Shown: positions 150-54,788, counted from the first letter of the whole stretch. The stretch: 56,874 nucleotides of DNA, filler included, from Jimgerdemannia flammicorona (GCA_003990765.1; 3 parts of 3 records of this genome joined end to end with filler, not necessarily neighbours in it), one strand, 5' to 3'. Program-made: numbers and translations. Notes: generated by a model not told the origin, from the letters alone.

Positions 150-537
150 TTAAAGACGGGTCTGTGTCAGGTTAAATACGGGTCGGGTCATGTATATTTC
201 TCGGGTCAGGTCACGTATATTTCTCGGGTTGGGTTAAAGATGGGTTACGTATAATTCCGGGTCGGGTTAAAGACGGGTGACGTACGTTTCCAGGTCGGGT
301 TAAAGAAGGGTGATGTATAATTCCGGGTTGGGTTAAAGATGGGTGACGTATTATTCCGGGTTGGGTTAAAGACGGGTGACGTATTATTCCGGGTCGGGTT
401 AAAGACGGGTGACGTATAATTCCGGGTCGGGTTAAAGACGGGTGACGTATAATTCTGGGTCGGGTTAAAGATGGGTGACGTATAATTCCGGGTCGGGTTA
501 AATATGTACACGGGTCGGCTCGGGTTGCGATGCACTA
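150..537. repeat. 33-bp tandem repeat (about 9 good units plus degenerate ones), probably the subterminal array and end of a hAT-like DNA transposon
   Basis: Unit CGGGTCGGGTTAAAGACGGGTGACGTATAATTC, CpG-rich. It ends in ...GGGTTGCGATGCACTA at 537 (minus strand TAGTGCATCGCAACC), where E1 LTR homology resumes at 538. The repeat is certain; the hAT call is inferred. Confidence 0.6.
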
Positions 538-1484
538 ATTGCCAATGATGTCATTGTGGGTGATATCATCTTGTTTGGCAGTAGTGGGGGCTATTCAATC
601 TATAACATTCTCTTCCACAAAATAAGGAACAAATGTGGAGTCTTGGAGAGATCTAACCTAGATGCTGGGGCCTTGGAATGCTGAGATCAATCTTTGCATG
701 AATTTATCTGGGTTATTCTGAAGAATGGAATACCAGAAGTCCTCTATCTTATTACTATTGAGGGTGATAGTAGACTGAGCCTCTGTGGCCACTATGTCCT
801 CCAGTGTATTGGTATAGTGAGCTGCTAGTTCCTTGAAGTCTGAGATCCTAGTATATATACTCCAAGTTGGGGATCAACTATAGTGCATATCAGAAGACCT
901 GATAAATCTTCTTTAATATTCTTATTTCATATATATCTATAGGAGTGACATCTTGAATCTCCTGAGAACTGGCCTGAGGAAACTCCCAGCAGAGGAGGTT
1001 TTCTATTTCATACTCCTGCCATATCCAGAGGCATTCAGTAGCAATGGTGATCCTTGTTTCCATTTTACAGCAGTAGAGAATATAATGATAAAGGTCACCA
1101 GTACTCAGATTGAGACTAGAAGACCTTCTTGTATAGATCTCCATAGCTCTTCTAGTGTCTTGAAATATCCTATCCTGGACTGAGGGGCCTTGGTGGTTCC
1201 TGGACCTTGAGGTTTGGTGAGCAGCAGATATTTTGTTTATAGTAAGTCTTTAGAACTATTTCTGTGAGCTTTGTTTGGATTACAGCTACTGCAGTTTCTT
1301 GATCCTTCTTTTATATTTCTCAAGATATCTGTCTTATGATCATGATGACTCATAGTTAGTCATCCTTACTTATCATATAGCCTGGGTAAGTCATGCCATA
1401 TGATCTTCTTGTGCTCTGATCTAGTGACTTATAAGGAAAGGCTATCTCCTGTTCTGATATCATCATTCTGAGATCACTGTTACA
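538..1484 (-). repeat. E1 3' LTR (interrupted at 537)
   Basis: Aligns to 7799-8741. Starts TGTAACAGTGATCTCAG on the minus strand, directly after the purine tract TTCAGGAGAAAGA. Confidence 0.9.
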
Positions 1485-1859
1485 TCTTTCTCCTGAATAA
1501 GAATCTTCTCTTAAGCATCCTTATTCATTAGTCCAGTCTGAAAAATTTGCTAATCCTATAATCTCTGGCAGGGGGTCAAAAAGTAGTATTTATGGGCTAG
1601 TGTCTTCTCTATATATTTTGGTGTGATGGTGAAGAGTCACTCTCTTCATATAGAGCAAGGGTCTGATTTTGATCTTCATCAATCAATTGATAGTTCAAAC
1701 TCCTCTGACTTTGAAAGTCTCATAGTTAAGTAGTTATTAGTGCTGTATCTCTTAGAGAATAGTCCAGACAGATTGCCTGCTGGTCATGGGACATACTGTT
1801 ATGATTCATGGACTAGAACCTCATGGGCAGTTATTATGTTTTGCTTCTCTTATATAAGT

Positions 1860-7126: not shown

Positions 7127-8741
7127 TGTTACATAGTGGTTGCTGAGTCCTCCAAATATGTTAGATTCTCTCCAAGATATATCTCTTAGACTAACTACAA
7201 GTTTGTTATAAGCAAGTTCTTATTGGAGTATCTTTCTAAGAGCTTATAGTTCTCAAACTTCTTATCTTTAAACTGTCTTGTTATCTCTTAGATTGCTTGC
7301 ATGGAATTGAGGGTAAGTGAACTTGACTGACTTTATTTTAAAGTAAATAAGAGAATATTTATACAAAATATAATTCAATGATTACTAAGTTATAAAGCTA
7401 AATATAAATTCCAATTACTAAATAAAATACTGAAACACAAAAAACTATGGTTATAAGTACAAGTTCAAGTATCTATACAAATAGTTGCACAAGTTCAGGA
7501 TGTCAGTAGAATTTCAGTAGTACAGGAAAAGGATACCAGAAGAATTTCTGAGTTACATAAGATCAGAATGCCAGAAGAATAACAGTTATACAGAAAAAGG
7601 ATACTGGTAGAATTCAGTGTTACTAAGAACTTAAAGCAAAATGTTCAGAACTATAGAGACTTCATCTTTGTTACTATCATCAAGGCCAGAGGTCAGAGAC
7701 AGGATGTCTTTGAAGAAGATGAGGTCCATGAATATTTTGTCTATTTCATATATGTTGCACATTTCATATACTTCATGCATGTCATATGGGATGACATCAT
7801 TACCGATAATATTATTGCCAGTGACATCATCTCATTCAGCAGTAGCAGGGGCTCTCCAATCTATAACATTCTCTTCCACAAAATAAGAAACAAATGTAGG
7901 ATCTTGGGGAGGTCTAATCTGGATGCTGGGGCCTTGGAATACTGAGATCAATTCTTGCATAAATTGATCTGAGTTGTTCTAGAAGATGGAATATCAGAAG
8001 TTCTCTATCTTATCACTATTGAGAGTAATAGTAGACTGAGCCTCTGTGGCCACCATGGCCTCCAGTATATTGGTGCAGTGAGCTGATAGTTCCTTGAAGT
8101 CTGAGATCCTAGTATACTCCAAGTTGGGGATCAACTATAGTGTATGCCAAAAGATCTGATAAATCTTCTTTACTATTCTTATTTCATATATATCTATAGA
8201 GATGGCATCTTGAATCTCCTGGGGACTGGCCTGAGGGAATTCCCAGCAGAGAAGGTTTCCTATTTCATACTCCTGCCACATCCAGAGGCATTCAGTAGTA
8301 ATAGTGATCCTTGTTTCCATTTTACAGCAGTAGAAGATATAATGATAAGGGTTATCAGAACCCAGATTGAGGCTAGGTGTTCTTTTTATATGGGTTCTCA
8401 TAGCTCTTCTGATGTCTTGGAACATTCTATCCTGGATTGAGAGGCTTTGGTAGTTTCTGGACCTTGAGGTTTGGCAAGTGGTAGGCATTTTTTTTATAGT
8501 AAGTCTTTAGAACTATTTCTGTGAGCTTTGCTTGGATTGCTACTACTGTGGTTTCTTGATTTTTCTTTTATATTTCTCAATATGTCTATCTTGTGGTCAG
8601 GATGACTCACAGTTAGTCATCCTTGCTCATCTTGTAGTCTGGGTGAGTTATGCTGTATGATCTTCTTATGCTCTAATCTGGTAACTTATAAGGAAAAACT
8701 ATCTCTTATGCTAATGTCATCATTCTGAGATCACTGTTACA
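7127..8741 (-). repeat. E1 5' LTR (~1.6 kb, contains accessory ORF)
   Basis: TGTAACA...TGTAACA termini on the minus strand, followed by ACTTGGT and a leader similar to E2's leader. Confidence 0.88.
7631..8488 (-). pseudogene. LTR-encoded accessory protein of E1 (~285 codons when premature stops are read through)
   Basis: One frame from MPTTCQ (8488) to TAA (7631), broken only by stops explicable as C>T/G>A changes. Second partial copy at ~538-1230. Homologous to 46226-47049. Confidence 0.8.
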
Positions 8742-9870: not shown

Positions 9871-10335
9871 TGTGACAGCTGATCCGAATTAGTAACATGA
9901 AACAGGGGAATTAGACATTTGATCACAGTACCTGAATCTGATTCCCAATATAGCTTAGCCTCATAAATAGCAGCCACATTCCGCAAAGTGCAGAAACTTT
10001 AACATTTGCAAAGATTTATGAGATATTAGAATCTTTGCAATCAGTGAAATCTTAGCAGATGTTAAAAGATTCAGTACTTGCGAAACAAGCCATTACTTAG
10101 CCACCTTATAGCTAGAAAACTTGTATAAATAACTCAGTATCTTAGAGTGAATAAACCTCAGATCGAAATAGTTCAAAAGCAAAGAGATAGCAAAGGAACT
10201 AGTAAGCCCACAGGCAGATACACTTCGAACTCATCCACCCCTGCATCCCAAGGACTCTGAGGAGTCAGAGAAGATCAAGTATTCAAGATACAGAAATCTG
10301 ACATACTTTTAAGAGTAAGCATCTGCTATGTTACA
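9871..10335 (+). repeat. E2 5' LTR
   Basis: 465-bp direct repeat of 16119-16580, with TATA-like TATAAATA near 10124. Confidence 0.95.
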
Positions 10336-15659: not shown

Positions 15660-16050
15660 ATGGCCCAGTGAGCCATTGAAAGACAGTGGTGTTCCACCAA
15701 GTCACCAACAATGGAAGAATCCTTTGACAGTATCCAGAGTATAGTGCAAATACACTTATTATGAATCTCACATTTCAAGGCCTACCAGAACCGAACTAAG
15801 TTCCAGGAATACTTCAAGTTGGGACAGCTACTGAATTCAAGACTGAAGATGGGAAAAGAAGACTGGATTAGAGAATGTCAGCTCTCCTACACTCAGATTA
15901 CAATTGCAAAAAGAGTGCACAAGTTATTCAAAGACGACAAGTCAGCCTTAGCCCATTTCTGAGAAGTAACCTCCAGAAGACTTTGTATATGTCAAGAGAC
16001 AACATTGGAAGGATGTAATGACATAAATTGCACAGTATAAGAAAATACAA
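15660..16050 (+). pseudogene. E2 3' accessory ORF, distant homolog of the E1/E3/E4 accessory protein
   Basis: Translates ...KFQEYFKLGQLL...ITIAKRVHKLFKDDKSALAHF*EVT..., lying between IN and the PPT. Probable frameshift near 15980. Confidence 0.6.
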
Positions 16051-16118: not shown

Positions 16119-16580
16119 TGTGATGGCTGATCCGAATTAGTAATGAAACAGGGGAATTAGACATTTGATCATAGTACCTGAATCCAATTCCCAATATAGC
16201 ATAGCCTCATAAATAGTAGCCACATTCTGCAAAGTGCAGAAACTTTAATGTTTGCAAAGATTTAGGAGATGTTAGAATCTTCACAATCAGCAAAATCTTA
16301 GCAGATGTTAAAAGATTCAGTACTTGCAAAACAAGCCATTACTTAGCCACCTTATAGCTAGCAAACTTGTATAAATAACCCAGTATCTTAGAGTAAATAA
16401 ACCTCAGATTGAAATGGTTCAAAAGCAAAGAGATAGCAAAGGAACTAATAAGCCTGCAGGCAGATACACTTCGAACTCATCCATCCCTGCATCCCAAGAC
16501 TCCGAGGAGTCAGAGAAGATTAAGTATTCAAGATACAGAAATCCAATGTACTTTCAAGAGTAAGCATTTACTATATTACA
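16119..16580 (+). repeat. E2 3' LTR
   Basis: Direct repeat of 9871-10335. Confidence 0.95.
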
Positions 16581-18997: not shown

Positions 18998-19069
18998 TTC
19001 GTCACCGTGGTAGGAGGCGAGAATCGGATAACTGACATATTTGTGGACACCCTCCTCATTTTCATATTT

Positions 19070-21720: not shown

Positions 21721-23790
21721 TGTAAGCACACAACCCCCAAGCTACTGAAATCACATGTCACTCTTTGAACAAGCCACCAAAATCACATGTGACCTCTGAA
21801 CAAATCTGGAGATCACCTGCTTGATCATGAAGCTGAGTTAAACTGAAGTCACAGTGTATAAAGCTGAGTCAACATGAAGTCACAGAACACAAGATTTACA
21901 CAAATAGAATCTTACTAATCAGGACCAAATGCATATACATATATCAAGTACTGAGATATGTCAAAACAGAGAACTAAAACAAACAATAACCATAACTTCT
22001 GAATATATACAAATATAACCACCAAGATCTACAATTGCATCCATACTGACATTTGGAATGCTATTGTCAACTGAGCCACACTCCCTCTGCCCCTCATGAA
22101 TATCCATAGTCTAGTACCCCTCTACTTCATGGAAGCCTGATGGAATGCTCTGAACATGCTTAACGAGACCTATTAGATCAGACAAATCTCAAGCTACTAC
22201 CAGATTGGCTGCCTTCTGGAAGACATAGTTGAACACCACCATGATACAGACATTACTCAGATATCTCAACACCAGAAGCTCATTGCCCACAAATACTGAG
22301 AACTCTTCTATGAGTACAGCACCTTTATTCCCTACCTCTAAGTTACAATCAGTGAAATGGTTACTACTCTGTCCTACAGCTAAATAGATGACATGATACA
22401 AGAACTCAATCACAAGTACCTCAAATATGTGGAAACCACAGACAGAACCTTCCCATACCTGAACGACTATATCCTGCAAATGCCTCAAGTTGAATACATG
22501 ATGAAGGACATCTACGATATAATCTACTTTGATGAAGATAAAGCAGAAGACAATGATCCCTCTGACACTGACATGACCTCAAGCCAAGGATCCCTGCCAA
22601 CCCTGATCATGCTACCAACCTTGCTAATGAACTTACAATAGTTTATAACCATATATGAGACTTATTGGGACAATGACCACTGGTATAAATACTAACCCAT
22701 GTTCACCTCTAATTACTTCAACTATAATGAAGAGACCAGAGAACACAATCTGTACCTTCAGACAATCCTTGAGTTTAAACCAACAACTCCACCACCTGAG
22801 TATGAGTGATATGAACCACAGCCACCAGCCTACTACAACCCTGTGACTCATAGTGCTGTAACTTATAGAAGGTATGCAGACAGCGAATCTGATGAAAATG
22901 AAGACAATGCACCACTCCTTTACCCACTAACATCTTATCCAGTATACAAGACAGACGATGCAATCCTGTGGGATGGAGATGAAGTTCCAATATATTATTA
23001 CCTCAGTGAACAAGGAGAAGTAATCTGCGAACTACTTTTCCTAGATGACTACTTCATCAGAGATGATGTCATTGATGGTAATGTTATCAAAGACTACCCA
23101 GACAGTGTCTAAACCTATAAATAGCTTAGCAGTCATAGTATAGTTAGATTAGTCTTATATGACATGACTGTGAACTGACTCAGCAGTCAGATGATCTCTT
23201 GACATATCAGATCACACTTATACTATATGACTGTATTTCGACTCAGCAAGGCACTTAGTGCTACATCCATATTTAGCATAGTCCAGATAGCCTCTCACTA
23301 GTATAAATACCCCCTCCCTCAGACCATAGAATCTCAGACCTGAATATTCTGAACATAACTTCTGAGTACTTTCCCACAATATCTCTTCACACAACTACTC
23401 CTAGTATAGTAATATCATAAATAGCAAATAAATCTATTTAATAACCCACAAAACACTCTTAAGTAAATCTACTCCCCATTAGGTCCCTCTCCTAACTCTA
23501 TTATGAAATTTCCTAATTGGGTATTGTCTGTAGTGATATGTCAATTCAACTGAGCTAGTCTTAGTTTCTTGAACTTCCTAAAATATGGAAAATCCTAAAT
23601 ATCCAGAACTAGTCCAAAAAAGGACTTTGGTTGAGACATCAACCTGATCTTGAAATCAATAAGCATAGAGGACATACTCCATATGAAATTGATCTTGACC
23701 TTAAGAAAATGGTCTTCCAGAACATCCAGAACTTCCAGAAAACCCTTCCAGAACTATGTAATGATTACTCTAAAAAGCAACCCTCTTACA
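21721..23790 (+). repeat. E3 5' LTR
   Basis: Direct repeat of 35601-37663, differing mostly by transitions. Confidence 0.95.
21958..23112 (+). pseudogene. LTR-encoded accessory protein of E3 (384 codons when stops are read through)
   Basis: ATG 21958 and track ORFs 22393 and 22843 share one frame, with only transition-type stops. Contains SYYQIGCLLE...HQKLIAHKY*ELFYEYSTFIPYL and an acidic tail. Second copy at ~35834-36985. Confidence 0.8.
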
Positions 23791-25958
23791 ACTTGGTAGC
23801 AGCAGTTTATAATCTAATTCTACTTCGAGATACTTCCTTACTCTACTACAAACTCCTCTGAGAATTCCTACAAGTTGGTATAAAGCCCAACCTCTGAACT
23901 GGAATTTATTCTGAACCATCTGACAATCTAGAGAGAATTGAACCTAATATACAAGGATAATTTAACCTCCACACCTGCAACAAGTGGGACAAACTTCACT
24001 CAAAGAAAGAAGTACTCTGATTAAATTAGCAAATAAGTGAATCTCTATTCACCAAACTCCTTGCACTACACCCAGCAAGTCAAGATGAAGAAGGTCTTAT
24101 AGAAGCCTTCTTTACTCTTCTCAACAAGAGTTTTGTCAGCTCTATAAATCCAAGTGACCTAGAATAACCAGCAGCAGTCTTTCTAGCCTTAGTTCCTCAT
24201 GAAGCCCAAGCCTCTATAGCCAAGTGGCTCAACTCTACCAACTTTCACCATACCAGGACCAAGACTGTGTTATACTACTAATTCCAGAACAGCAAGGTCT
24301 ACCATATTCTTAAAGAAGAAGCAAGAAAAACCCTTCATCAACTATCTGACCCTAAACCAGAAGCAGGCCCTACTATAGCCCTACCTGAATCTGAAACCAA
24401 TACCAAACCTGAACTTGACTTTGAATTAGGTTCATCTGAAATCAGATATACAACCAATTCTGTCTACTTTGACACTGAGCAAATCCAATTACATGGGGAC
24501 CAAACCAAAGAGAAGGAGGAGTATCTCAGTGAATTTAATCCTGGATACACTACCAAAGGAGATGCACCTCTATTAGGCCAGAACACACCTACACAACAAC
24601 AAACAGTTATCTATCAAGCCCTCACTCCAGACTCACAACTATTTCTCCAGCAACTTATATAGACCCAAAGAACCCCATCACACTCTACACCAGTACCTCA
24701 AGTAGTACCAGTAATACCACTACCAGTAGTCCAACTGCCTCCAGTAAACAATATGGTGAACCAACAGATTCTAGACCTCACAGCCCAGGTAGCAATAATG
24801 GCAGCAACCATTACTGCCTTAGCTGAACAGACCTGACCTACTAAAAATCTGAGCCTACCTACCTTCAATAGTACTGTACAAGAAGTCCAAAGCTTTATTA
24901 GTATAGTTGACACCAACTTCAAAGCCAATCAATAGACCAATGAGTGAGTTGCTGACCACCTTCTGACAAACAATCAAGACCACACTCTGGAACAACTCTT
25001 TGCTACTACCATAGTCTATGTCTGCCAAGTTATTATATTCTTCCAAGGACCTACTGAAGAATGGTGGTGAACTCTTTCTGAAAAACCCCTCACTTGGGAC
25101 ACCTGACCTGCAGTAGTTGCTCAGAATACAGCAAACAATGCCCCAGGATATAGAGCCCATCCTACAGCCCCTGGACTCAAACAACTCATGATTGCTCAAT
25201 ACCACAGCAAAACTATGATCACTGAATCTCAAGTAAAACTCCACAACCTCAAATTTGATATATATAGTAAAGAAGAATTTGAAACCTTCTGTACCAAACT
25301 CGAGTCACTCCTGAACACTATTGGCCTAGGATACATTGCCAATGATGAAGCATGAAATAGTATAAGAGCAGACTATTTATTTGATGTACTATCTGAATGG
25401 CTTACTAGAAAAATCCAAGAACAAGACTGCCCAGTTGGCTGTGATCACTAACAATGGTGCCTGGCAAGAATCAAGACTATGGTCAAGTGAATCCTAATAG
25501 CTGGACCAATTCTGCCTTAAAGACAATTCAATAACAAGGAAAAAACTTAGACCAAGAAAGAAGAACCCAAGCATGAAACATCCTGAGCTCTCTCCACATC
25601 CACCTCTTGGACAACCAGAAATCATGAACCCACCCAGCCAAGTACCTTCAAGAAACTCACCGAAGGAGAAAGGAATGAACTTCAAAGAAGTGGAGCATAC
25701 TTCTATTGCCGAAAGACAGGACACATGGCCAGTGCATACCCTAACTGAAAACCCCAAACAGCAACACAAGCAACTGTTACCACTCTGCATCACCTCAACA
25801 ACCTGACTACCAGAACATTAAACTTTATCAAGTTAAGGCAAACTGCCAAGACCCCAACCAAAGGAAGTCAAAAAGCAGCTGGATATGACCTATATGCAGC
25901 CAAAGAAGCTACAGTTTTCAACCAAGAAGTCAAGCAAGTCTATACAGGAATCAGTATC

Positions 25959-28900
25959 TATTGAGATTTCTAGCTAATCAACTCGGTATGTAGCTCACGT
26001 GAAGGTGGTGCAGCTCATGTGTGAGGACGTCATCAGTGGAAATGTCATCAACGCGTAAATACGCGCTTCGCACATATCAATAAAGATTGCTCCTTTATCT
26101 CTCAAATTCCAGTATTTCACAATAGGTTATGAGCCCCAGTTAGTGGCTAACCAAAACACCTCTTTAATATACGCTACACTACTCTACGTGCAAAAGAGAT
26201 GTCGAATACGCCAGGGAGTCCCTCGGCAGGTGCCGGAACGGGTACCGGAACGGGTGCCGGAATGAGTACCGGAACGGGTACCGGAACAGCCCCAGCGGCA
26301 ACTACTACGACCATCACGACGACGTCAATTCCAGCCCCAGCAGCTATTACAACAGTGCAAACGTCCAAGAGGTCCATCCCTGTCTTCGACGGGAAAGATT
26401 ATGCAATCTGGGCCTATCATATGAAGAATCTCCTTATCGAATGTGGCTTGGCGGACTACTGGAAGCCGCAAGCACAGATTACGGGATACAATGTCGCTAA
26501 CGACGAGAGAGCCTTATGCGAGATTACGTTCACACTATCTAACGCACAACTGAAACACGTCATCTATGCTACAACAGCAAACAAAGCCTGGGAGATCTTA
26601 CGCAATCTACACCAAAAGGACTCCGCCTTGAACAGATTCCACTTGAAATCGCAACTATTCAGCCTACGGATGAAGTCCAAGGAGATGATCCATGAATACG
26701 CCGATTGGGTTGACGAGCTGATGAATCACATTAATGCTCTAAGCGCACCAGCAGATTACATCAAGGACGATGACAAGGTCCTGGCCCTTACACGTGGCCT
26801 TCCCAAGGCATATAATATCGTTGTCATCGCGATGAGGGAGAGTGGTAAGCTTTCGGACTACAAACACGTGATAACGAGCCTCCAGAACATGGAATCTCAG
26901 GCACAGGAGAACGACGATGATGAAAGAGCACTCTACGGCTCGCGTGGACAAGGCAAAAAGCAGCGCAAGGGTCAACACGGCAAAAGCCAGCGCGACAAAA
27001 GCCAGCAAGGCCAAGACCAATCAGAGAAATTCGACAGGAGCTGCTATTATTGCGGCAAGTATGGACACCGTGCGAATGAATACATGAAAAAGGAAAAGGA
27101 CAAGGGTGGAAAGAAAGGAAAGAGTGGCAAGCAAGTGAATAGCGCAGATTCTAACGCCGATAAGGGAGGATTGTTCTTCGCCAATGTAGATTCGGATCCT
27201 TTTGGACCGGTCAAAAATGCGCAAGCCACCCCGACATCTATGAGATTTAGTTCTACATCCACCAGCGCCAGTTCTACCTGCAAATGCGCTTGCTCGACAT
27301 CTACGGAACCCGACATTCGGAATACTTTTCAAGGTGCAAAAAGTGGCGGTGACGTAAACAGCATGTGCACCAGTGCCAGAGACGAGTATACACCGAGCGC
27401 TAACATTGCATGCAATGAAGAGGACATCTGGCTCCTAGATTCGGGCGCATCCCAGCATATGACTTCACACCGTGAGTGGTTCTCTACGTACGAACCCTTT
27501 GACAACCCCGTGCATATCAGATTGGGCGATAATAAGGTTATATACGCTCAGGGGAAGGGCAACGTCAGTATGTATTTGCATGGAAATGTTAAGGAACCCT
27601 ACGCGACCTTTATGGACGTACTGTACGCTCCAGGGATAGGAAAGAACCTCTTCTCGATGGGTCGAACGCTAGCACGAGGGGATAAGCGAATCTCAGGAAT
27701 GTGCGATGGCGTGAAGATATACGATCTCGACGGCAAAGAAGCATTAACGACCAGGAAGCATGGATACTTATACGCAATAAACGGAATGCCGAGTGGCACA
27801 GCTGCAGCGAATGCAGCGTGGTCTGGAACGACCAGCGTAGCATATACCTGGCACCGGAGACTCGGACATATCAGCCTGACAAGCCTCGAACATATGATAA
27901 GGAACGGTTCAGTGAGCGGACTCCCGGACAACTTACGCCCGGACCATATGCCATGTGATGATTGCGCGATGAATAAGGCCTATCAACAACCCTTCCAGGA
28001 ATGGACGAAACGAGCCTCAGGGATACTCGATTTGGTACACTCAGACGTATGGGGACCTGTGAGAAATAAATCACACTCCGGGAAGAAGTATTTTATTACG
28101 TTCATCGACGACTATACGCGCAAGGTCTACGTATACCTTATGGCGGTGAAGAGCGAAGCTTTGGAAAAATTCGGAGAATACAAGGCTATCGTCGAAAATG
28201 AGACCGGACATAAAATTCGAGCACTACACTCAGATAACGGCAAGGAGTACGTTAATAATCAGTTCAAGAACTTCTTGACGAGACACGAGATAAAACACCA
28301 AACGATGGCTCCCTATACGCCTCAGCAGAACGGCGTAGCGGAGCGTTTTAACCGAACGGTAGTGGAGATGGCCCGTACAATGCTCAACGCGGCTGATCTA
28401 TCGAAGCCCTTTTGGGCCGAAGCGGTGAATACGGCGGTGTATATATGCAATAGGTGTATTTCTCGAGCTCTAAGCAAGGATGCTTGTGGCAACGATCAGC
28501 AATCCAGGAACGAGGATAATGCTATGCCACATCAGCTATGGAGTGGAAATCGGCCCGATATCTCACATCTACGCATATTCGGAAGCGAAGCCTACGTGCT
28601 AGATAAAAGCGGAAATAAGGATAAGTTTGATCCAAAGGCTACTAAGCATGTGTTCCTCGGGTATAGCAACGGTTGCAAAGCGTATAGGCTGTGGAATCCA
28701 AGGAAGCGGAGAATTATTAACTCCCGTAACGTTACATTCAAGGAACCTGGCGTACAAGATTCACACGTGAATATCGAGAAGATGACTACGATTACACATA
28801 CGCTTCTGGGAACGCCCCCAGCAATCAACCTTACGCCTCTGGCGGCCAGTACTACACCTCCGGCGAGTCCTCCAGTCACACCCCTGAAGACACCCCCGAA

Positions 28901-31244
28901 AATGTCACCTATCCCGGCGAGGATTCATTCGCCACCTCCTGGACCGAGGATAACTGAGATAAGGGATAGCGATGACGAGACTAGCGAAGCAGAGACGATT
29001 CTCCCATCTACGAAAGGTAAACAAAAGCACAAATCCAGGACATTGGATACGGATCTAGGAGACTATTGGAATGTTCCGAAGACCCAATGCAAGCATCATG
29101 TGAACTACACTTGCGAGTGCACATACTTGATAACGGTGGATCCACGATCATATGACGAAGCCGTATCCTCCCCTGATAGCAAGGAGTGGAAGCGAGCGAT
29201 GGATGAAGAGTATAATTCGCTCATCAGCAACGGTACTTGGGATCTAGTACCTCTTCCGAGGGATCGTCAAGCTATAGGATCTCATTGGGTATATAAAGTT
29301 AAGCGTCAAAGCGATGGAAGCGTAGAGCGGTACAAGGCACGCTTCGTTGCTAAGGGATATTCACAGGATTACGGCGTAGACTACGACGAGACGTTCTCTC
29401 CCGTATTCAAGCTCACTTCTCTATGCATACTACTGGCTATCGGCGCTGAGTACGATTACGAAATACAGCAGATGGATGTTAAGACTGCATTCCTGAATGG
29501 TGACGTAGATACGGAACTATACGTCCAACAGCCGCAAGGATACGAACTATACGACGGGCGGAAAGAGCTCATATGCAAACTACATAAAGGGTTATATGGA
29601 ATCAAGTAAGCGGCGAGACTATGGAATCGGAAGATCGATCAATATCTGCTTGACAACGGATTTCGGCGGTGCGAAGCAGATCCATGCATATATACGCGAC
29701 ATACATCCTCAGGAATGGTATACTTGGGGATATGGGTCGATGACATCATAATCGTTGGCAAGAGAAGCCAAGTTAACGAAGTAAAAGCTATGCTACGCCA
29801 GGAATTCGAGATGACAGACTTAGGCGACGCGTCCTTCTTATTGGGGATAGCGATTACACGTGACAGAAACGAGCGCACTATATACCTATCCCAAGCCACC
29901 TACGCTAAGCAAGTACTTGAATGATTCAGGATGAGCGATTGTAAGCCAGTGGCGACGCCAATGGAAACTACGACGAGGCTAAGGAAAAGTGACCCTACGC
30001 CCGACAAGAACATCCCCTATAGACAAGCGGTGGGATCCCTTATGTATCTTATGCAAGGAATGCGACCAGACATCTCCTATGCAGTAAACAAAGTGGCGCA
30101 GTATGCCTCATGCTATGACAACTCGCATTGGATGGCAATTAAGCGCATATTCAGGTACATCAAAGGAATAGCAGACTATACGCTCAGTTTGGGCGGTGAT
30201 AAAGGACAAAGCGGGAGTCACGTGCGTGTCTCCGGAGCTTGCGACGCCGATTGGGCCGGCGACCTCGACGACCGGCGCTCTACGACCGGATATCTCTTCC
30301 ATATCGGCAAAGGGGTTATCTCGTGGCAAACACGTAAGCAATCATCGGTGGCCACATCCTCTACGCAAGCGGAATATCAAGTGTTGTCCACAGCAACTAA
30401 GGAAGCCGTATGGCTACGGAAATTACTAAAAGAATTAGGGTATACTCAGGAATGAGACTCTACGCTGATCTTACAGGATAATCAATCTATGATTGCATTA
30501 GCAAAGAACCCTATACATCATGCAAGGACTAAGCATATCGACATTCAACATCATTATATATGCGAATGCATGGAAAATGGTACTATACGCCTGGAATATA
30601 TGCCAATGGAGTCTATGACGGTGGATTCTCTTACGAAGGCCCTTCCGAGGCCAAAATTCGAACACTGCGTGCAAGGGATGTGTCTTACGAGCAACCCTAT
30701 GCTACGGCCAGGATTCAGGGACCACCAACAACAACAATAATCGATGCAAATCACGAGACTTTCCTAATGGCGAAAAGCCTCCAACATATACATCTTACAT
30801 CCCCTATGAACATTGCACATCCGTACTGCATTTCTATTTGCAAGCAAGCAAGCAAACATTTCAAGCAGACATCCATTTCGGACATTCGGACTGTTTATCA
30901 GTTCCTAGCGCACTCTTTCTACTACGTATTCTACCTATTTTAGTGCTTATAAGCAGGGAATTCGGACATTTTTAGGTTGATAGATAGCACCCATTCTACC
31001 TATCGTTTCCTGCATTGCATTCATTAGTTAGCTAGCATGCATTTCTGCAGTTTGAGCGCATATCTCGTTGAGCGGGAGTGTTGAGATTTCTAGCTAATCA
31101 ACTCGGTATGTAGCTCACGTGAAGGTGGCGCAGCTCACGTGTGAGGACGTCATCAGTGGAAACGTCATCAACACGTAAATACACGCTTTGCACATATCAA
31201 TAAAGATTGCTCCTTTATCCCTCAAATTCCAGTATTTCACAATA
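25959..31244 (+). mobile_element. Young Ty1/Copia LTR retrotransposon
   Basis: 166-bp LTRs at 25959-26124 and 31079-31244, TSD GTATC, PBS GGTTATGAGCCC, PPT GAGCGGGAG. CpGs largely retained. Confidence 0.97.
26199..30740 (+). pseudogene. Copia gag-PR-IN-RT-RNaseH polyprotein with three premature stops
   Basis: 1136-aa ORF with WLLDSGAS, WHRRLGH, HSDVWGP, QQNGVAER and QMDVKTAFL. Same-frame continuation with WVDD, DADWAGD and KHIDI. Stops at 29607, 29922 and 30453. Confidence 0.95.
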
Positions 31245-34200
31245 GTATCCAAATTCCTGAAGAATATGTTGGAAGAATATGCTGTCACAGCAGCCTAGCA
31301 TTGAAAGGACTCTCAGTAGAAGGAGGAGTCATTGATGAGAATTACATAGGCGAAATTATTGTCCTCATCCAAAACTACAGTTGGACACCCTTCAAGATCC
31401 CCATTGATTTCTATATTGCTCAGATTCTATTCGAAAAAATTGAGTTAATACTAATAGTCAAGGAAGTCCCTGAACTACTGCTCACTATCCAAGGATCCAA
31501 AGGATTTGGTTCATTGAACAAGGCCCCAGCCCAACTAACCATGAACAAAGAAAAACAATTCTACAAGAAAATTAAAGATGGATATATATCAAGTGGCCAA
31601 TGCCTCCATGGTATTGAAATGTACTCTTCCTGAATGATTGATGATTACTTCTATTGTATCAATGAACTGGCTCAAAGAAGAACCAATAAAAGCTCCTACA
31701 ACTGAAATCACCACCTTTGAATCAGACAAACTACTTACACTTCAAGCTTTTGTCAACTGAGCATCTGTCAAGATTATGATAGACAGTGGTGCCTCAGACA
31801 ACTTCATCAATGAAGAAACAGCCAACAGACTCAAGGTCTTCACATCTCCAGTACAGCAAACTCAAGCAGTTGCCACAGCCAATGGAACCTCACATGTTAT
31901 TAGCAAGAAAGTCCACAATCTACCCTTCTGAATTGGTGACTACTGAGTACATGTTACCCTCCAAATTGTACCACTTCCTGACAATAAAATCATTCTTGAG
32001 ACTCTATGGTTAAAACAAGAAAACCCTATGATTGATTGGGTAAACCATTCTCTGACCATTAAGAAAGGATGCCACAACTTCAAACTGTAAAGTGAAAAGG
32101 ACCCACTCAACTCTAGTGACCCTAGACCAAAGATCACTTACATCAACAAGCTATAACTCAAGAAATTGGCCAAGAAATGCCCTCTTTTTGCCATCTCCAT
32201 CCATCCATCCAAAGGAGAACTCAAGAACTCTGAAGAAGACTTTTCCAAAGTTGACAGCTGTGTTAGACCCTTACTTCAGAAATTCTGAGACATATTCCCA
32301 AAGAAGCTTCTGAAAGGCCTACCACCTAAACAAGCAGTAGATCATGCCATCAAGACTATCCCAGATGCCAAACTAGCCTTCAAGTCAATCTACCATATAT
32401 CTCTAAGAGAAATTAATGCACTCAAGAAGGAAATCGACGAACTCCTAGAACAAGGATTTATCAGACCCAGTATATCACCCTATGGTACACCAGTCCTCTT
32501 TGTTGTCAAGAAAGGAGGAGACCTATGAATGTATATTAATTATGGAGACCTCAATGAACAGACCATTAAGAACTATTGCCCACTATCAAGAATCAATGAA
32601 ATATTTGATAGGCTCACCAATCTGCAATTCATGAGCTCTTTTGACCTGCGAAATGGTTACTGACAAATTGCTATGAAAGAAGAAGACATCTACAAGACAG
32701 TCTTTCAAACTTGCTATGGACACTTTGAGTTTCTGATTATGCTCTTTGGCTTAACTAATGCTTCTACAATCTTCCAAACACTGATGAATACTATCCTGTA
32801 CCCATACCTGGACAAATTCGTTATTATCTACATTGATGACATCCTAGTCTTCAGCAAAACCCTGGAGGAATATCTTGAACACCTTGAACTAGTACTACTG
32901 AAACTCCGAGAAAACCAACTCTTTGCAAAACTCAGCAAATGTGAATTTCTCCTGAAAGAAATTCAATTCCTTGAACACATTGTTACTCCAAATGGAATCA
33001 AAGTAGACCCCAGCAAAATCTCTATAATCAAGGATTGGCCCAGACCCAAGAAGCTGAAAGATCTCCAGTCATTTCTGGGATTAGCAAACTATTACTAGTG
33101 ATTTGTTGCCAACTTTGCCAAAATCGCTACTGCTCTTACCCAAATGACCAAGTACAGCAAGAAAGAAGAACAACCCTGGACCTCAAAATAAGAGAAAGAC
33201 TTCAACAATCTTATAAATTAGGGACCTAAGCAAGATACCACCTTTCAAGCACTGAAGGATGCCTTGATAACCACTCCAGTACTTCAAGTAGTAAATCCTG
33301 CCCTACCATATGAAGTCACTACTGATGCCTCTGACCTAGCTCTTGGAGCTGTGCTCATACAAGAAGGACACCCTGTGGCCTACTACTCCCACAAGTTCAA
33401 TGATGCCAAAATTAACTATACAACCCACAAGAAGGAAATGCTAGCCATTGTAGACACTCTGATCAAATAGTGACCATACCTAGAAGAAGTACACTTCACT
33501 GTATTGACTGACCACAAGTCATTAGTCAACATCAAGACCCAGGCTACCCTTTCTCGAAAGCAAGCCAGATGGATAAAAGTTCTCACCAACTTTGACTATG
33601 AAATCCAGTATCACTCTAGTAAGGAAAACATTGTTGCTGATGCAATCTCCAGACCACCAATTGAAGAAGTTATCCAAACCCTCACTTTGGTTACAAACTT
33701 CATCATGGAACAAATCATCACAGCATATGCTGATGATAAAGAAGCTTAAGCACTGTGAGAAATTCTGAATAGTGACAATACTAATAAGTATACTCAGTAT
33801 AACCAATACTAACTAAAGGACAATACTATCTATTACAAGGACAGATTGTATATTCCAAACAACTGAGATCTCTGAAGGACTATTCTATTTGAATGTCATA
33901 ATACCCCTACAGCTGGATATTTAGGATTTGACAAATGCTATGAGGTCATCTCTCAAAACTTCTATTGGCCCTATATAGCAGATCAACTAAAGACCTACAT
34001 CACTTTCTGTGATGCCTGCCAATGGAATAAGTCCTCAACACTAGCAAAACCTAGCTTACTCTACTCTATCCCAGTACCATCTGCTAATTGGGAACAAATC
34101 TCTATAGACTTTATTATACAACTACCCTAAACCAAGAACAGAAAAGATGCAATTGTTGTCTTTGTGGACTATCTCAGCAAACAAGCCCACTTTATACTAA

Positions 34201-35600
34201 CTACCACTACTGTAACAGCATCAGATATAGCTACACTCTTGTTTGACAACATCTTCCACTATCATAGTCTTCCTAAGATCATTGTTAGTGACTGAGATCC
34301 AAAATTCATCAGTCATTTTTGGAAAGCTCCTCTATATATACCTTGGAATGAAACTTGCACTATCCACAGCCTTTCACCCTGAAACTGATGGCTAAACTGA
34401 AAGAATGAACTGAACTCTGGAACAAATGCTAAGGAACTATGTTTCCTACAGACAAGATGATTGACATGAACACCTTACTATAGTCAAGTTTGCCTATAAC
34501 AATAGCAAGCAAGCCTCTCTTGGAATAACCCTGTTCTTCACCAATACTGGACAAAACCCAAACACCCCTTTGACACTCATCCAAACTACTGAAGAACTCT
34601 CTACAGTCGAAGCTATTAAAGAATTCTTACTCTGAATGTGTAATCTAAGCCAGATCACAATTGAGAACTTATCACAAGCTCAAGAACAACAGTCACAGTA
34701 TGTTAACCAACACTGCTGAGAAGAAACCTTTGATATTGGAGAAAAAGTTCTACTAGACATCCAAGGATACTGAGTTGACAACCTCAAATACAGACTATCT
34801 ACAAAGCTGAACAACAAGTTCATTGGACCATTCAAAGTTATTGTACAAGTCTCTCCAACCTCCTACAAATTGGTGCTACCAGATACTATTAAGATTTACC
34901 CAGTCTTCAATGTCCAACATCTCAAGTAATATAATGACAATGATGATGAACTATTCTCAAACTGAACCATAGAACCACCTATACCTGTCATTATTAATAA
35001 CTAGAAAGAATACAAAGTTGAACAAATCCTCAACAAATATGGCCACAAGAACCATCCTGAGTACCTTGTCAAATGGAAAGGTTACCCAATCCATGATATC
35101 ACATAGAAACCTGAGACCAATCTCTAGAATACTACTGACTTGGTTCAGGAATATAATTTCTTGAACAACTGAAATCTGAATACTCTGACACCTATCAGTA
35201 CATACTATATATTACTCTCCTGAATATTATACTATCATAAACAAAATCAAGAACTCAGCAAGTTAAGACAAAAGAATACTGACCCTTTAGAAAAATAGCA
35301 AAACTGAAAGCAAGTCTATTCTCCCCATACCACTGGTGGGAAACGAGGTGTAGACATTTAAGAAGATTCCTTAGAGGAAATTCTCCAGCAGTGAATGATG
35401 TCAGAATCACTTCCGGTGTACGGCATCAAACACATAACTCTTTAATGTATGAATCCAATGCATTAGGCAACTGTACTACAAGCATGCCACTTTCTGAAAA
35501 AATGGACTTCACCAGACTTTTGACTCCTCAAATAGTGTAACAACACTAGAACAAATTAGAAGGCCCCAATAAGAATATCGAAAGCTAAGAAGGAGAGAGT

Positions 35601-37663
35601 TGTAAGCACATAATCCCCAAGCCACCAAAATCACACATCACCCTCTGAACAAGCCACCAAAATCACATGCGACCTCTCAACAAATCTGGAGATTACCTGC
35701 TCAATCACAAAGCTGAGTCAAACCAAAGTCACAGCACACAAAGCTGAGTCAACACGAAGTCACAGAATACAAGATTCACACAAACAGAATCTTACCAATC
35801 AGGACCAAATGTATATATACTGAGCACCAAGACATGTTGAAACAGAGAACCAAAACAAACAACAACCACAACTTCCAAACATACACAAATATGACCACCA
35901 AGATCTATGACTGCATCCATGCTGACATTTGAAATACCATTGTCAACTAAGCCACACCCCCTCTACCCCTCATGAATATCCATAGCCTAGCACCCCTCTA
36001 CTTTATAGAAGCCTGATGGAATGTCCTGAACATACTTAATGAGGTCCACCAGATTGGACAAATCTCAAGCTACTACCAGATCGGCCGCCTCCTGGAAGAC
36101 ATGGTTGAACACCACCATGATATAGACATTACTCAGATGTCTTAACACCAGAAGCTCATCACTTACAAATACCGAGAACTCTCCTATGAGTACAGCATCT
36201 TTATTCTCTACCTCCAAGTTACTATCAGCGAAATGGTTGCTACTCTGTCCTATGGCCAAATAGATGATATGATACAAGAACTCAACTACAAGTACCTCAA
36301 ATACATGGAAACTACAGACAGAACCTTCTCACACCCGAATGACCATATCCTGCAAATGCCTCAAGTTGAATATGTGATGAAAGATGTCTACGATATAATC
36401 TGTTTTGATGAAGATGAAGTAGAAGACAACAATCCCTCTGACACTGACATGACCTCAAGCCAAAGATCTCTACCAACCCTGATCACACCACCAATCTTGC
36501 TGATGAACTTACAATAGTTCCTAACCACATATGAGACTTATTGGGACAATGACCACTAGCATAAATATCAACCTATATTCACTCTCAATTATTTCAACTA
36601 TAATGAAGAGACCAGAGAACACAACCTGTACCTTCAGATAACTCTTGAGTTTGAACCAACAACTCTATCATCTAAGTACAAGCAACATGAATCATAGCCA
36701 CCAGTCTACTATTACTCTGCGACTCATAGTGCTGTAACTTATAGAAGATATGCAGACAGTGAATCCAATGAAAATGAAGACAATGTATCACTCCTTTGTC
36801 TGCCAACACCTTATCCAGCATATGAGACAGATGCAATCCTGTGGGATAGAGATGAAGTTCCAATGTATTATTACCTCAGTGAATAAGAAAAAGTAATCCA
36901 CAAACTACTTTTCCTAGATGACTACTTTATCAGAGATGATGTCATCAATGGTGATGTCATCAAAGACTACCCAGACAGTGTCTAAACCTATAAATAGCTT
37001 AGCAGTTATAGTATAGTTAGATTAGCCTTATATAATGTAACTGTGAACTAACTCAGTAGTCAGATGATCTCTTGACAAGTTAGATCACACTGTACTATGT
37101 GACTGCATTCTGACTCAGCAAGGCACTTAGTGCTATATCCATATTTAGTATAGTTCAAATAGCCCCTTATTAGTATAAATATCCCCTCCCCCAGACCTCA
37201 GAATCTTAGATCTGAACATTCTGAACACAACTTCTGAGTACTTCCCCACAATATCCCTTTATACAACTATTCCTAGTATAGCAATATCATGAATAGCAAA
37301 TAAACCTATTTAATAACCCACAAACTACTCTTAAGTAAATCTGCTCCCCATTAGGTCCCACTCTTAACCCTATTATAAAATTTCCTAATTGGGTATTGTC
37401 TGCAGCAATACATCAATTCAACTGAGCTGGTCTTAGTTTCTTGAACTTTCTGAAATACAGAAAATCCCGAATATCTAGAACTAGTCCAAAAAAGGACTTT
37501 GGTTGAGACGTCAACCTGATCTTGAAATCAATAAGCATAGAGGATATACTCCATATGAAATTGATCTTGACCTTAAGAAAATGGTCTTCCAGAACTTCCA
37601 GAACTTCCAAAAAAACTCTTCCAGAACTATATAATGGTTATTCTAAAAAGCAACCCTCTTACA
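35601..37663 (+). repeat. E3 3' LTR
   Basis: Direct repeat of 21721-23790. Confidence 0.95.
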
Positions 37664-38705: not shown

Positions 38706-39496
38706 TGTAATAGAATGATGAACGACAAATGATCACATGACCTGGCGATGACGTCATCATATGATCGAGCGCAGCATATGAATAATGAGTGACGAATGAA
38801 TGAATGATATGAAACAATGTGGAAAACAATATCCAGCTTATCCCTAACAATCAGCACCACAGCAACAGTTGCCATAGTTGCTGATCATTGCCTAGTAATT
38901 GAGGTCCTGATCATAAAGTTGTTTTTGCTAAAAACCACCTGACAAAGGTCGCGATCACAAACCTCACTATAGCTACCAAATTAGTCACTCATACTTTGGT
39001 CAGAAATCATGGACCAACTTGTATAAATACCCCCCAGTTTCTATCCAAAATAAAGTAGTTTTAGTTCAGTCCTTGATATAAGAATCAAGTCCCCCCACAC
39101 ACACATCCCCCTGAGTCTTAGTAATGACATCTAAGTGACTCTAGTGTTTCTGACTAAACTCCAGAAGCCTAGCTAACTTCTGCCAGAACTGAGACTGGTA
39201 TATAAATCCCCAAAGACTTAAGTAAACCCATTGAACCTGAATTCCAAGGCGAATTCAGTCTGTGCACAGCAAAGAACAAGACCCTCAAAATAGGGCACAA
39301 GAGAAAGACCTTTGAAACAGAAGGCAAACCAGAGAAAGACCTTTGAAAGATAAGGCACTGCCACTACAACTACTTAAGCGAGTGTTTCCTCAAACTGAAG
39401 ACTTCTTGGTACACATTGTGTACTAAGTCCCTAAGTAATAGTCTACTTCCCTCTTATCCTAAGGATAAGAGAGGGGTAGAAGTGAGAGTTATTACA
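38706..39496 (+). repeat. E4 5' LTR
   Basis: TGTAATAG...TATTACA, direct repeat of 47061-47851. Confidence 0.95.
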
Positions 39497-46153: not shown

Positions 46154-46161
46154 TATAAATA
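46154..46161 (+). promoter_or_regulatory. Internal TATA box upstream of the E4 accessory ORF
   Basis: TATAAATA ~70 bp before ATG 46226, conserved in E5 (~54213) and preceded by decayed E-box-like CACATG/CATGTG motifs. Confidence 0.55.
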
Positions 46162-46225: not shown

Positions 46226-47049
46226 ATGCCTGCCACCTGCCACCAAACTGCCCGCCATAGCCAGCCCCTCCCAAGCCAGGTTGACTGCCTCTTTGGACAC
46301 ATCCAGGTTGCTATCCAAGGAAGGAACTGCCACTCAGAGGCCCTTAACCTCTCCAGCTCAGACCTAGGACAGTATGTCCTTGACTGCTGTGAAATTATTG
46401 AAAGAGCCTACCTTGCTACCAGCCACCTAGAAATCTGGCACGAATATGAAATCGGTCACCAGCTCCTCCAACATATAAGTGGCCTACCTACAGACCAGAT
46501 CTCTGACTGGACCCACCTAGACAGGCATGAGCAAAGACTTGCTAAGAAGGTCCATCAAATCATGTGCCATGCACCCTTCGCGATCCCCAACCTCAACTAC
46601 ATACAACTAAAGGACTTCCAGAACCTCTCTTTCCTGAGGTCGATGACCTAGAGATCAAGGTAGCCCAAGAAGCCAACTTCTGGATCACCCCTAAGTCTAT
46701 TGACTGCGAACCCTACTGGAGCCCCCTCCTGAATGACAACCCTGACCAATGGCTCCAAGGTCTCTCTGACCTCTTTGAAGGACCACCTATTCAAATGGAT
46801 ATTCCCAGGCATGAAGATCAAGAGCCCTACTTGGATGGCCCCAACCACATCAGATGGAGAACTCCTACACCTATTCCAATGCAAGAACCATTTGCAGACC
46901 TCATTGACTTCTCCATCCTGGACAGCGAGCCATCTGCAACCACCAACCCCCCTACCTCTGAAGAAGAGAGTAATGACCCTGAGGAGGATTCCCCACCTTT
47001 CTCTCCCCTGGTTCTCAATTTCTCAATCAACGAGGACATTGATTTCTAA
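46226..47049 (+). pseudogene. E4 accessory protein (~274 aa after repairing a 1-bp deletion)
   Basis: Track ORFs 46145 and 46564 join at ~46632; the E5 copy reads NLSFSKIDELE in frame there. The stop codon abuts the PPT. Homologous to the E1 LTR ORF over more than 200 aa. Confidence 0.85.
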
Positions 47050-47060
47050 GGGGGGAAGGA

Positions 47061-47851
47061 TGTAATAGAATGACAAACGACAAACGATCACATGACCCGG
47101 TGATGACGTCATCATACAATTGAGTGTGGCATATGAATAACGAGTGATGAACGAATGAATGATGCAAAACGACATGGAAAACGATATCCAGCTTATCTCC
47201 AACAATCGGTGCCACAGCAACAGTTACCATAGTTGCTAATTATTGCCTAGTAATTGAGGTCCTGATCACAAAGTTGTTTTTGCCAAAAACCACCTGATAA
47301 AGATCGCGATCACAAACCTCACTATAGTTACCAAATTAGTCACTCATACTTTAGTCAGAAATTATGGACCAACTTGTATAAATACCCCTCAGTTTCCATC
47401 TGAAATAAAGCAGTTTTAGTTCAGTCCTTGATACAAGAATCAAGTCCCCCCACACACACATCCCCCTGAGTCTTAGTAATGACATCTAAGTGACTCTAGT
47501 GTTTCTGACTAAACTCCAGAAGCCTAGCTAACTTCTGCCAGAACTAAGACTGGTATATAAATCCCCAAAGACTTAAGTAAACCCATTGAACCTGAATTCC
47601 AAGGCGAATTCAGTCTGTGCATAGCAAAGAACAAGACCCTCGAAATAGGGCACAAGAGAAAGACCTTTGAAACAGAAGGCAAACCAGAGAAAGACCTTTG
47701 AAAGATAAGGCACTGCCGCTACAACTACTTAAGCAAGTGCTTCCTCAAACTGAAGGCTTCTTGGTACACATTGTGTACTAAGTCTCTAAGTAATAGTCCA
47801 CTTCCCTCTTATCCTAAGAATAAGAGAGGAGTAGAAGTGAGAGTTATTACA
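47061..47851 (+). repeat. E4 3' LTR
   Basis: Direct repeat of 38706-39496. Confidence 0.95.
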
Positions 47852-54288: not shown

Positions 54289-54788
54289 TATGTATCTGCT
54301 ACCTACCACCAAACAGTCTACTATAGCTATCCCCTCCCAAGCCAGGTTGACCACCTCTTTGAATACATTCAGATTGCTATTTAAGGAAGAAACTGCTGTT
54401 CTGAGGTCCTCAACCTCATTAGCCAGGACCTAGAACATTATATCCTCAACTGCTATAAAGTTATCAAAAGAGCCTACCTTACTATCAGTTACCTAGAAAT
54501 CTGATATAAATATAAAATTAGCCATCAACTTCTTCAATGTGCAAATAGTCTACCTACTGACCAGATCTCAGACTGGACTAATCTGGATAAGTATAAGCAA
54601 AGACTAGCTAAGAAGGTCTATCAAATCATATACTATATACCTTTTGCAATCCTCAATCTTAACTATATATGACTGAAGGACTTTCAGAACCTCTCATTCT
54701 CTAAGATTGATGAACTAGAGATCAAGGTTGCCCAAGAAGCCAACTTCTAGATTACTTTCAAATTTACTAACTATAAACTCCACTAGAG
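54289..54788 (+). pseudogene. E5 copy of the accessory ORF, truncated by an insertion
   Basis: Colinear with 46226-46720. Confidence 0.8.

Follow-up and report, generated by a model that had tools for sequence, protein, structure and literature searches.

How does the same kind of accessory gene come to lie wholly inside the LTRs of some retrotransposons and outside the LTRs of others? The question is raised by a long LTR at positions 21,721 to 23,790 of a 56,874-nucleotide stretch of DNA from Jimgerdemannia flammicorona (GCA_003990765.1; three parts of three records joined end to end with filler), the whole of which was analysed and is referred to here as the window. A preliminary description had proposed that a shift of the polypurine tract (PPT) moves a self-contained gene cassette into or out of an apparently two-promoter LTR. 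The explanation that we favour, with somewhat better than even confidence, is a modular accessory-gene cassette in Ty3/Gypsy elements, in which a TATA box and a ~50-nt leader precede an ORF that encodes a protein with a helical N-terminal domain and an acidic tail. The gene appears to have been swapped between lineages along with its own predicted promoter, as opposed to having changed place when the repeat boundary shifted.

The window is occupied by a nest of LTR retrotransposons, among which lie AT-rich spacers; no tRNA genes or Rfam matches were found in it. Four Gypsy-type elements, E1 to E4, were identified, all decayed and each with an extra ORF before or within the LTR; every gene copy in the window is broken. 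Terminal direct repeats of the TG...CA type, a PPT and a TSD are present in E2, E3 and E4, as in Ty3/Gypsy elements, and the TSD of E1 is unreadable because its 3' LTR is cut. The pol order protease, RT, RNase H, integrase was read from Pfam domains in E4, from motif order in E2 and E3, and from alignment to E2 in E1. A chromodomain (PF00385) at the integrase C-terminus places E3 (E 9e-11) and E4 (E 5.5e-12) among the chromoviruses; no chromodomain was found at the integrase end of E2 in three frames or, by alignment, in E1. Pol identity is 49.7% between E1 and E2, 35.8% between E3 and E4, and 28.7% between E1 and E4. CpG is strongly depleted in the old elements, most 2-kb bins over them having an observed/expected ratio of 0.00-0.16, and nearly all differences within their LTR pairs are transitions (244 of 253 in E3, the LTRs of which are 87.7% alike).

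The layout given in the preliminary description was confirmed: the ORF lies in U3 in E3 (LTRs of 2,070 and 2,063 bp) and E1 (1,615 bp), and before the PPT in E4 (791 bp) and E2 (465 bp). The resulting duplication of the ORF is complete in the two LTRs of E3; in E1, where the 3' LTR is cut, it covers only the first ~230 of 285 codons. A position just upstream of the PPT applies fully to E4, whose stop codon (47047-47049) directly abuts the PPT, as does that of an intact 291-codon gene at an independent metagenomic locus (L001). The E2 ORF also precedes the PPT, but its stop lies ~78 bp before the LTR, and its start ~75 bp after the integrase stop. The features are as follows.

526..1484, minus strand: E1 3' LTR, cut off at ~526, with ~230 ORF codons and one frameshift
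1485..1545, minus strand: E1 PPT and preceding sequence, homologous to those of E2
7127..8741, minus strand: E1 5' LTR, 1,615 bp, both ends E2-like
7631..8488, minus strand: E1 U3 ORF, 285 codons with four internal stops, homologue of the E4 gene
9871..10335, plus strand: E2 5' LTR, 465 bp, TSD ATAT
15711..16040, plus strand: E2 ORF before the PPT, 109 codons with two internal stops, core domain only
16119..16580, plus strand: E2 3' LTR
21721..23790, plus strand: E3 5' LTR, 2,070 bp, TGT...ACA, TSD GATAG
22015..23112, plus strand: E3 U3 ORF, 5' copy, 365 codons from the likely start, nine internal stops
23791..35585, plus strand: internal region of E3 (Ty3/Gypsy, chromodomain present), split by a Copia element within the dUTPase-like region
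35586..35600, plus strand: E3 PPT
35601..37663, plus strand: E3 3' LTR, 2,063 bp
35891..36985, plus strand: E3 U3 ORF, 3' copy, eight internal stops
38706..39496, plus strand: E4 5' LTR, 791 bp, TSD ATACT, with a CRE-like palindrome at ~+42 and TATA plus AATAAA at 39021-39054
46226..47049, plus strand: E4 ORF before the PPT, one frameshift near 46640
47050..47060, plus strand: E4 PPT
47061..47851, plus strand: E4 3' LTR
54213..54790, plus strand: TATA box and truncated accessory ORF (5' part, cut off at 54790) of the older E4-family copy
54791..55534, minus strand: gene-free core of an E3-type LTR, with an E4-type 3' segment (55623-55912) joined on its upstream side

Several further features were recorded in and around these elements. 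About nine copies of a 33-bp CpG-rich unit (209-502) lie where the E1 3' LTR ends and are perhaps the end of a DNA transposon, and a decayed 33-bp tandem repeat (7497-7618, 3.7 copies) lies in the E1 U3 between the ORF and the main TATA box. A GC-rich, CpG-normal stretch at 19000-20300 (minus strand), beside an assembly gap and with no Pfam match, resembles the first part of an intron-containing host gene; the assembly gaps, at 18898-18997 and 37890-37989, both read N44-TTAATTAATTAA-N44. The dUTPase-like stretch of E3 (~25850-25958 and 31245-31480, plus strand, by motif) is split by a young Ty1/Copia element (25959-31244, plus strand, TSD GTATC) with LTRs of ~167 bp that are 96% alike, a 1,152-codon open frame and normal CpG content. 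E4 has a dUTPase domain at 41480-41900 (plus strand; PF00692, E 2e-31), and dUTPase is known from fungal Gypsy elements in the accessible part of PMC2864245. An open frame of 223 codons at 37990-38490 (minus strand) resembles a fragment of a LINE ORF2. E4 itself is inserted just past the PBS of another copy from its family, one that is older and more decayed (38520-38705 and 47852-54790, plus strand; TSD ATACT), to which its pol is 69.6% identical.

The frame in the E3 LTRs was evaluated as a former gene. It is present in both LTRs without frameshifts and with one 3-bp indel between the copies. Stops common to both copies occupy 3 of 364 codons in the coding frame versus 48 of 726 in the other two sense frames (Fisher p 3e-6) and 52 of 675 for the LTR core. 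Internal stops in one copy or the other occur at 15 positions, and at 12 of these the second copy has a sense codon. An open E3-type relative encodes 247 aa and is 57% identical over 65% of the query. The scarcity of shared stops and the open relative indicate that the frame was a gene at insertion and is dead now. The likely start codon, which was picked post hoc, is lost in the 5' LTR, where the frame is readable from 21958. The ATG at 21958/35834 was disfavoured as the start, contigs of sequencing run X7 differing there, and the next in-frame ATG was preferred because it has a TATA spacing like that of the other elements.

The E3 LTR is present in soil metagenomes and in one organism, and none of the seven sequencing runs listed for it is an RNA run. 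This occurrence, taken with the chromodomain elements, suggests a fungal host. In four X7 contigs a purine-rich run immediately precedes position 21721, so this LTR start is common to other copies. Summed contig depth, which was higher for the 3' 700 bp of the E3 LTR than for the ORF in all four of the runs examined as contigs, was set aside, as contig depth cannot rank parts of a sequence. One low-depth X7 contig links the E3-type LTR at 23415 back to the LTR start at 21721, probably one copy inserted in the LTR of another. No viral contig carried an E3-type relative.

The accessory genes were compared pairwise with BLASTP. The E1 and E4 genes share 35-36% identity (E 7e-25 and 2e-10), the E1 gene matches that of L001 at E 5e-44, and these alignments make E1 and E4 clear homologues; no match was obtained between E1 and E2 or between E3 and E4. 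Intact relatives comprise four of E1 type, one locus of E4 type (L001) and one of E3 type, and no longer form of the E4 protein was found among 78 candidates. The family is small in databases, since a profile search of 1.84 billion representatives gave 10 matches. Seven of these were kept, and P0022 (a repeat protein), P0024 and P0025 (both multi-stretch matches) were dropped as chance. Between families dN/dS is 0.12-0.29, with dS near saturation in two of three comparisons, versus 0.43-0.56 for LTR pairs decaying without selection, a value that reflects method bias under transition-rich decay.

A profile made from non-window sequences was then searched against the six-frame translation of the window. 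It recovered E1, E4 and the older E4 copy, followed by the E2 ORF (10.2 bits) and the two E3 ORFs (4.8 and 1.3 bits); these loci gave the only positive scores, each in the coding frame. The score of the E2 ORF was reached by none of 500 shuffles, with or without the distant member P0026 in the profile, and by this measure the E2 gene is a distant family member that has the N-terminal core only. The accessory proteins had no significant match in Pfam, PHROGs or PDB sequences, and no Pfam family emerged for the window ORFs or their relatives at E up to 0.1-10. Matches in the ESM Atlas were confined to unnamed clusters, among which a Mucoromycota cluster that scored 0.89 is a lead.

The structure of the encoded protein was predicted with AlphaFold. 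A model of the core (140 aa, 17-row alignment) has seven helices with pLDDT 91.7 and pTM 0.83, and the full-length model was poor (pLDDT 50.9), its fold searches being uninformative. Foldseek with the core model returned nothing below E 0.001. With VIA-align, DNA-binding domains of ParB, SopB, VirB, KorB and Spo0J made up 8 of the first 30 rows and aligned to core residues 51-136. The best ParB-type match (Z 4.5, rmsd 4.2, 77 aligned) was tied with unrelated chains, and its Z is within the chance range, far under the values of 8-13 that, according to the tool, helical models commonly reach. After residue 140 the net charge is -16 to -35 in 9 of the 10 proteins long enough to count; P0026 and the E2 version are without the acidic tail.

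The modelled helical N-terminal domain, with its weak ParB-type helix-turn-helix (HTH) likeness, and the acidic tail suggest a transcription regulator. Activators are usually built in this way, from an HTH-like core plus an acidic tail. The protein would bind DNA by this core and activate the element's own promoters via the tail, as Tas of foamy viruses does, and we put this reading forward tentatively, at somewhat less than even confidence. An anti-silencing or RNA export role is nearly as likely. It is possible that the cassette model is right and that the protein instead counters silencing, serves in RNA export or restricts sister elements: with CpG so strongly depleted (0.00-0.16), an element would gain by escaping methylation, the structural match is not strong enough to settle the ligand, and the E2 version has no acidic tail. 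However, the HTH-like core and acidic tail fit the build of an activator, and Tas has an acidic activation domain (PMC3798896, in the part accessible); the DNA-binding activator is retained as the tentative reading.

Whether the E3 gene belongs to this family is less evident. The preliminary description had treated the four ORFs as one accessory gene, which is certain for E1 and E4, holds at a distance for E2 and is only probable for E3. That the E3 gene in U3 is unrelated to the E1/E4 gene, and that there were two separate captures into U3, is in our estimate unlikely. In its favour, there is no BLASTP match between the E3 and E1/E4 genes, the profile-profile comparison of E3 with the family gave E 0.054, the tails are unrelated, and the signal drops upon removal of P0026: the two E3 ORFs score 12.5 and 8.7 bits when it is in the profile, with 0 and 1 of 500 shuffles reaching these scores, and 2.2 and 0.6 bits when it is left out, with 3 and 43 of 500. 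However, the window-free profile scored both E3 ORFs positively and in the coding frame, and the motif spacing of the E3 gene agrees with that of the family in the alignment. The E3 gene is probably a very distant family member, with the N-terminal core in common and an unrelated tail.

The LTRs and the regions upstream of the genes were searched for promoter signals. Two TATA-like boxes claimed for E1, at ~8565-8571 and ~7357-7364, were found within 1-2 bp (8572-8565 and 7363-7356). Those claimed for E3, at ~23115 and ~23303, are present at 23116 and 23302 but are not the two-promoter pair; the candidate upstream box of E3 lies before the ORF, in the 3' LTR.

7332..7364, minus strand: E1 main TATA box with AATAAA 26 bp downstream
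8565..8572, minus strand: E1 upstream TATA (TATAAAAG), 84 bp before the ATG; the same in the 3' LTR at 1315
23063..23071, plus strand: decayed CRE-like palindrome inside the 3' end of the E3 ORF, read as DDVI
23116..23123, plus strand: TATAAATA of E3, 3 bp after the stop codon, kept in all three copies of the LTR core
23302..23309, plus strand: E3 main LTR TATA box, in the context GTATAAATACCCC as in E4
35812..35819, plus strand: TATATATA of E3, 79 bp upstream of the likely start, with no perfect match in the 5' LTR
46154..46161, plus strand: internal TATAAATA of E4, 72 bp before the accessory ATG

A further TATAAATA, at 22684, occurs in one E3 LTR only and was taken as a decay product. The proposal of a self-contained cassette was supported, in that the TATA box precedes the ATG by 72-84 bp whether the gene is in the LTR or before the PPT: TATAWAW begins 84 bp ahead of the ATG in both LTRs of E1 and 72 bp ahead of it in E4; for the older E4 copy the figure is ~80 bp, for L001 80 bp and for the E3 3' LTR 79 bp. 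Overall, TATAWAW lies 65-90 bp upstream of the start in six of the eight gene copies examined (background 1.5-7.4% per position) and is absent there from the E3 5' LTR and from E2. Between E1 and L001 the TATA-to-ATG leaders show weak alignment, the score being reached in 6 and 29 of 300 shuffles; between E1 and E4 they align at chance level (114 and 243 of 300). As for the main promoter, each complete LTR of E1, E2 and E4 has a candidate TATA box with AATAAA 26-27 bp downstream. The pattern GTATAAATA-N17-19-AATAAA, derived from those same LTRs, occurs five times in the window, once in each of them. In E3 the AATAAA is 125 bp after the 23302 box, so there is no close TATA-AATAAA spacing.

From the position of these motifs, LTRs with two predicted promoters are plausible. 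A cassette in U3 would give each LTR two start sites: the upstream one would produce a one-gene mRNA running through the AATAAA and ending in the same LTR, and the downstream one would produce genomic RNA that begins at or past the AATAAA. Any intact LTR, whether 5', 3' or solo, would in that case form a whole transcription unit. If there were a single promoter, the gene would be expressed from the 3' copy via a spliced or read-through transcript of the main promoter, as env and nef are, and the 5' and solo copies would be silent. The upstream box is a prediction, is imperfect in the E3 5' LTR and is absent in E2, whose ORF begins shortly after the integrase stop. However, the box-to-ATG distance is kept in E1, E4, the older E4 copy and L001 despite barely alignable surrounding DNA, and we consider the single promoter improbable relative to two promoters per gene-bearing LTR.

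A palindrome that we take to be 'CRE'-like (CpG decay allowed) lies in the 3' terminal part of both U3 genes, twice in E1 and once in E3, where it reads DDVI or DDVT. It is also found in the gene-free E4 LTR, not in the E2 LTR, and the pattern occurs four times in internal regions. P0013, P0014 and P0027 have the DDVI/DDVT peptide; it is missing from P0019 and from the pre-PPT-type P0017, the only one of these proteins with a known genomic position, so the overlap of gene and enhancer is a lead. A more far-reaching reading, which we regard as doubtful, is that the elements encode an HTH transactivator of their own on a portable unit of promoter and gene, exchanged among chromovirus and non-chromovirus lineages, that within U3 its coding sequence is overprinted with an LTR enhancer, and that every LTR, solo ones included, is an autonomous gene that can turn on related elements in trans. 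The overprinting part derives from the presence of the palindrome (DDVI) in both U3-borne genes and its absence from the pre-PPT type. If true, regulation of the complex-retrovirus type would exist in retrotransposons of early-diverging fungi.

Finally, the route by which the gene came to lie in U3 was examined by comparing element ends. E1 is an E2-type LTR with ~1.15 kb extra in U3 that contains an E4-type gene. A stretch made up of the E1 PPT, the 60 bp ahead of it and the 40 bp with which the LTR begins matched E2 with a score of 60 (shuffle maximum 36, 0 of 300), and the LTR end with the PBS matched with a score of 65 (shuffle maximum 44, 0 of 300). Among 16 such end comparisons, 0 of 300 was obtained only for the two E1-E2 pairs and for E4-L001; the ends of E1 or E2 did not reach the E1-E2 level with E3, E4 or L001. 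Under a PPT shift the E1 backbone is expected to be E4-like, and since it is E2-like in pol, PPT, LTR ends and PBS, the proposed shift fails for E1. An E2-type LTR with an E4-type gene instead implies insertion or exchange inside the E1 U3 with the PPT unmoved, and insertion of the cassette into U3 by recombination is, as judged from the sequence, most likely. The cassette would have entered the U3 of an E2-like LTR by recombination between lineages while the PPT stayed put, possibly by template switching between co-packaged RNAs. Recombination in U3 between co-packaged elements is discussed for Podospora crapaud in the accessible part of PMC10787394.

A second junction was counted as pointing to exchange as well. 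At 55912-54791 an E4-type 3' segment (81% identical to E4 45730-46022) is fused to an E3-type LTR core with no PPT between them, the core starting within the last 19 codons of the gene. The 744-bp E3-type LTR piece (55534-54791) was rejected as a gene-bearing solo LTR, as it holds these last 19 codons only, and no gene-bearing solo LTR was found in the window. The region 54791-56874 is chimeric and includes, besides these two parts, an other-strand frame that, by motif, resembles the post-RT region of L1/Tx1-type LINEs; Pfam gave no match for this frame or for the LINE-like frame at 37990-38490. The E4-type part belongs to a conserved 290-bp segment between the chromodomain and the accessory-gene TATA box (45730-46022 and 53781-54076, plus strand; 55623-55912, minus strand), which is 75-81% alike across the three window copies, is partly present in L001 (10-54), has no clear ORF and is possibly an enhancer or RNA element.

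A PPT shift, in which a new PPT upstream or downstream of the cassette moved the stretch into or out of the LTR, is quite unlikely as the general explanation: an LTR minus its cassette does leave a normal core (678 bp after the ORF stop in E3 and 504 bp in E1, versus LTRs of 791 bp in E4 and 465 bp in E2), the distance from chromodomain end to ORF start is similar in E3 (~720 bp) and E4 (~640 bp), and the E4 and L001 stop codons abut the PPT, but, besides the E2-like ends of E1, pol and accessory-gene relationships are discordant, no leftover PPT (a purine run then TGT) follows the ORF in E1 or E3, and the pre-ORF part of the E3 LTR is unlike the pre-ORF region of E4 or L001 (72 and 100 of 300 shuffles). 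For E3, which has no close sister with a pre-PPT gene here, a PPT shift is neither shown nor excluded. A vestige of an E2-type ORF before the E1 PPT was considered and rejected (285 of 300 shuffles reach the score for DNA, 209 of 500 for protein), an earlier end-to-end alignment of this region with E2 having been driven by its PPT part; the E3 pre-PPT spacer likewise had no significant similarity to the E2 ORF (40 of 500 shuffles).

The contribution of this window is a test that favours cassette exchange over boundary shift. If the explanation is right, LTRs are not purely regulatory DNA, solo LTRs are genes, masking LTRs during annotation would conceal an entire protein family, and accessory genes pass between distant Gypsy lineages with their promoters attached; the elements offer a testable case for what extra retrotransposon ORFs do. 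In openly available literature listings and abstracts we found no report of a U3-encoded gene in fungal Gypsy elements, which repeat databases, supplements or subscription papers may hold, and, within the same scope, none of a self-encoded activator in fungal LTR retrotransposons.

Extra ORFs of retrotransposons mostly lie between pol and the 3' LTR (PMC7264820; also the accessible parts of PMC2864245, PMC3485330 and PMC3248453). Examples are the antisense gene23 of the plant element Grande, with a nuclear product and its own promoter (PMC7264820), and, in the excerpts accessible, the 'add. ORF' of fungal chromoviruses (PMC2864245) and ORF0 before gag-pol in Retrosat2 (PMC3485330). The genes in the window resemble these in being conserved extra ORFs near the 3' end; unlike the E1 and E3 genes, those are described in the internal region, with none inside U3 in PMC7264820 or in the accessible text of PMC2864245 and PMC3485330. 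In bdelloid rotifer retroelements the same ORF3 occurs in unrelated lineages, read as gene sharing in the accessible part of PMC5408684. The same extra gene across retrotransposon lineages is a likeness to our case, whereas rotifer ORF3, in that excerpt, encodes known enzymes or env at the ORF3 position, and the gene here is of no known family and crosses into the LTR. With regard to an env-like identity, no Pfam or viral fold match was obtained, and the tails are acidic.

The nearest solved folds are the HTH domains of ParB, SopB and KorB, over core residues 51-136, at Z of at most 4.5 and rmsd above 4 A and with no sequence match. Tas of foamy viruses is a DNA-binding, acidic-type activator of its own promoter, which has a conserved TATA box, and of the LTR promoter (accessible part of PMC3798896). 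The accessory genes of E4, L001 and E1 are apparently like tas in being 3' genes with a TATA box 72-84 bp upstream. Unlike the cassettes inside U3, tas lies upstream of the LTR and not wholly within it, and no homology to Tas/Bel1 was found by Pfam or by fold. The sag gene of MMTV is an ORF wholly in U3, present in both LTRs and expressed from P2, a promoter in U3 that lies upstream of the main one (accessible parts of PMC9412291 and PMC2664473). Pfam gave no superantigen match for the window ORFs or their relatives, and the elements differ from MMTV in being fungal-type Ty3/Gypsy elements without env and not a betaretrovirus, in that the second promoter is a predicted one, and in that related elements also carry the gene outside the LTR. 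In having a long ORF wholly in U3 of both E3 LTRs and of the E1 5' LTR, and in most of the E1 3' LTR, they correspond to sag; as read from the DNA, the arrangement works like that of MMTV sag, with a protein that belongs to no known family.
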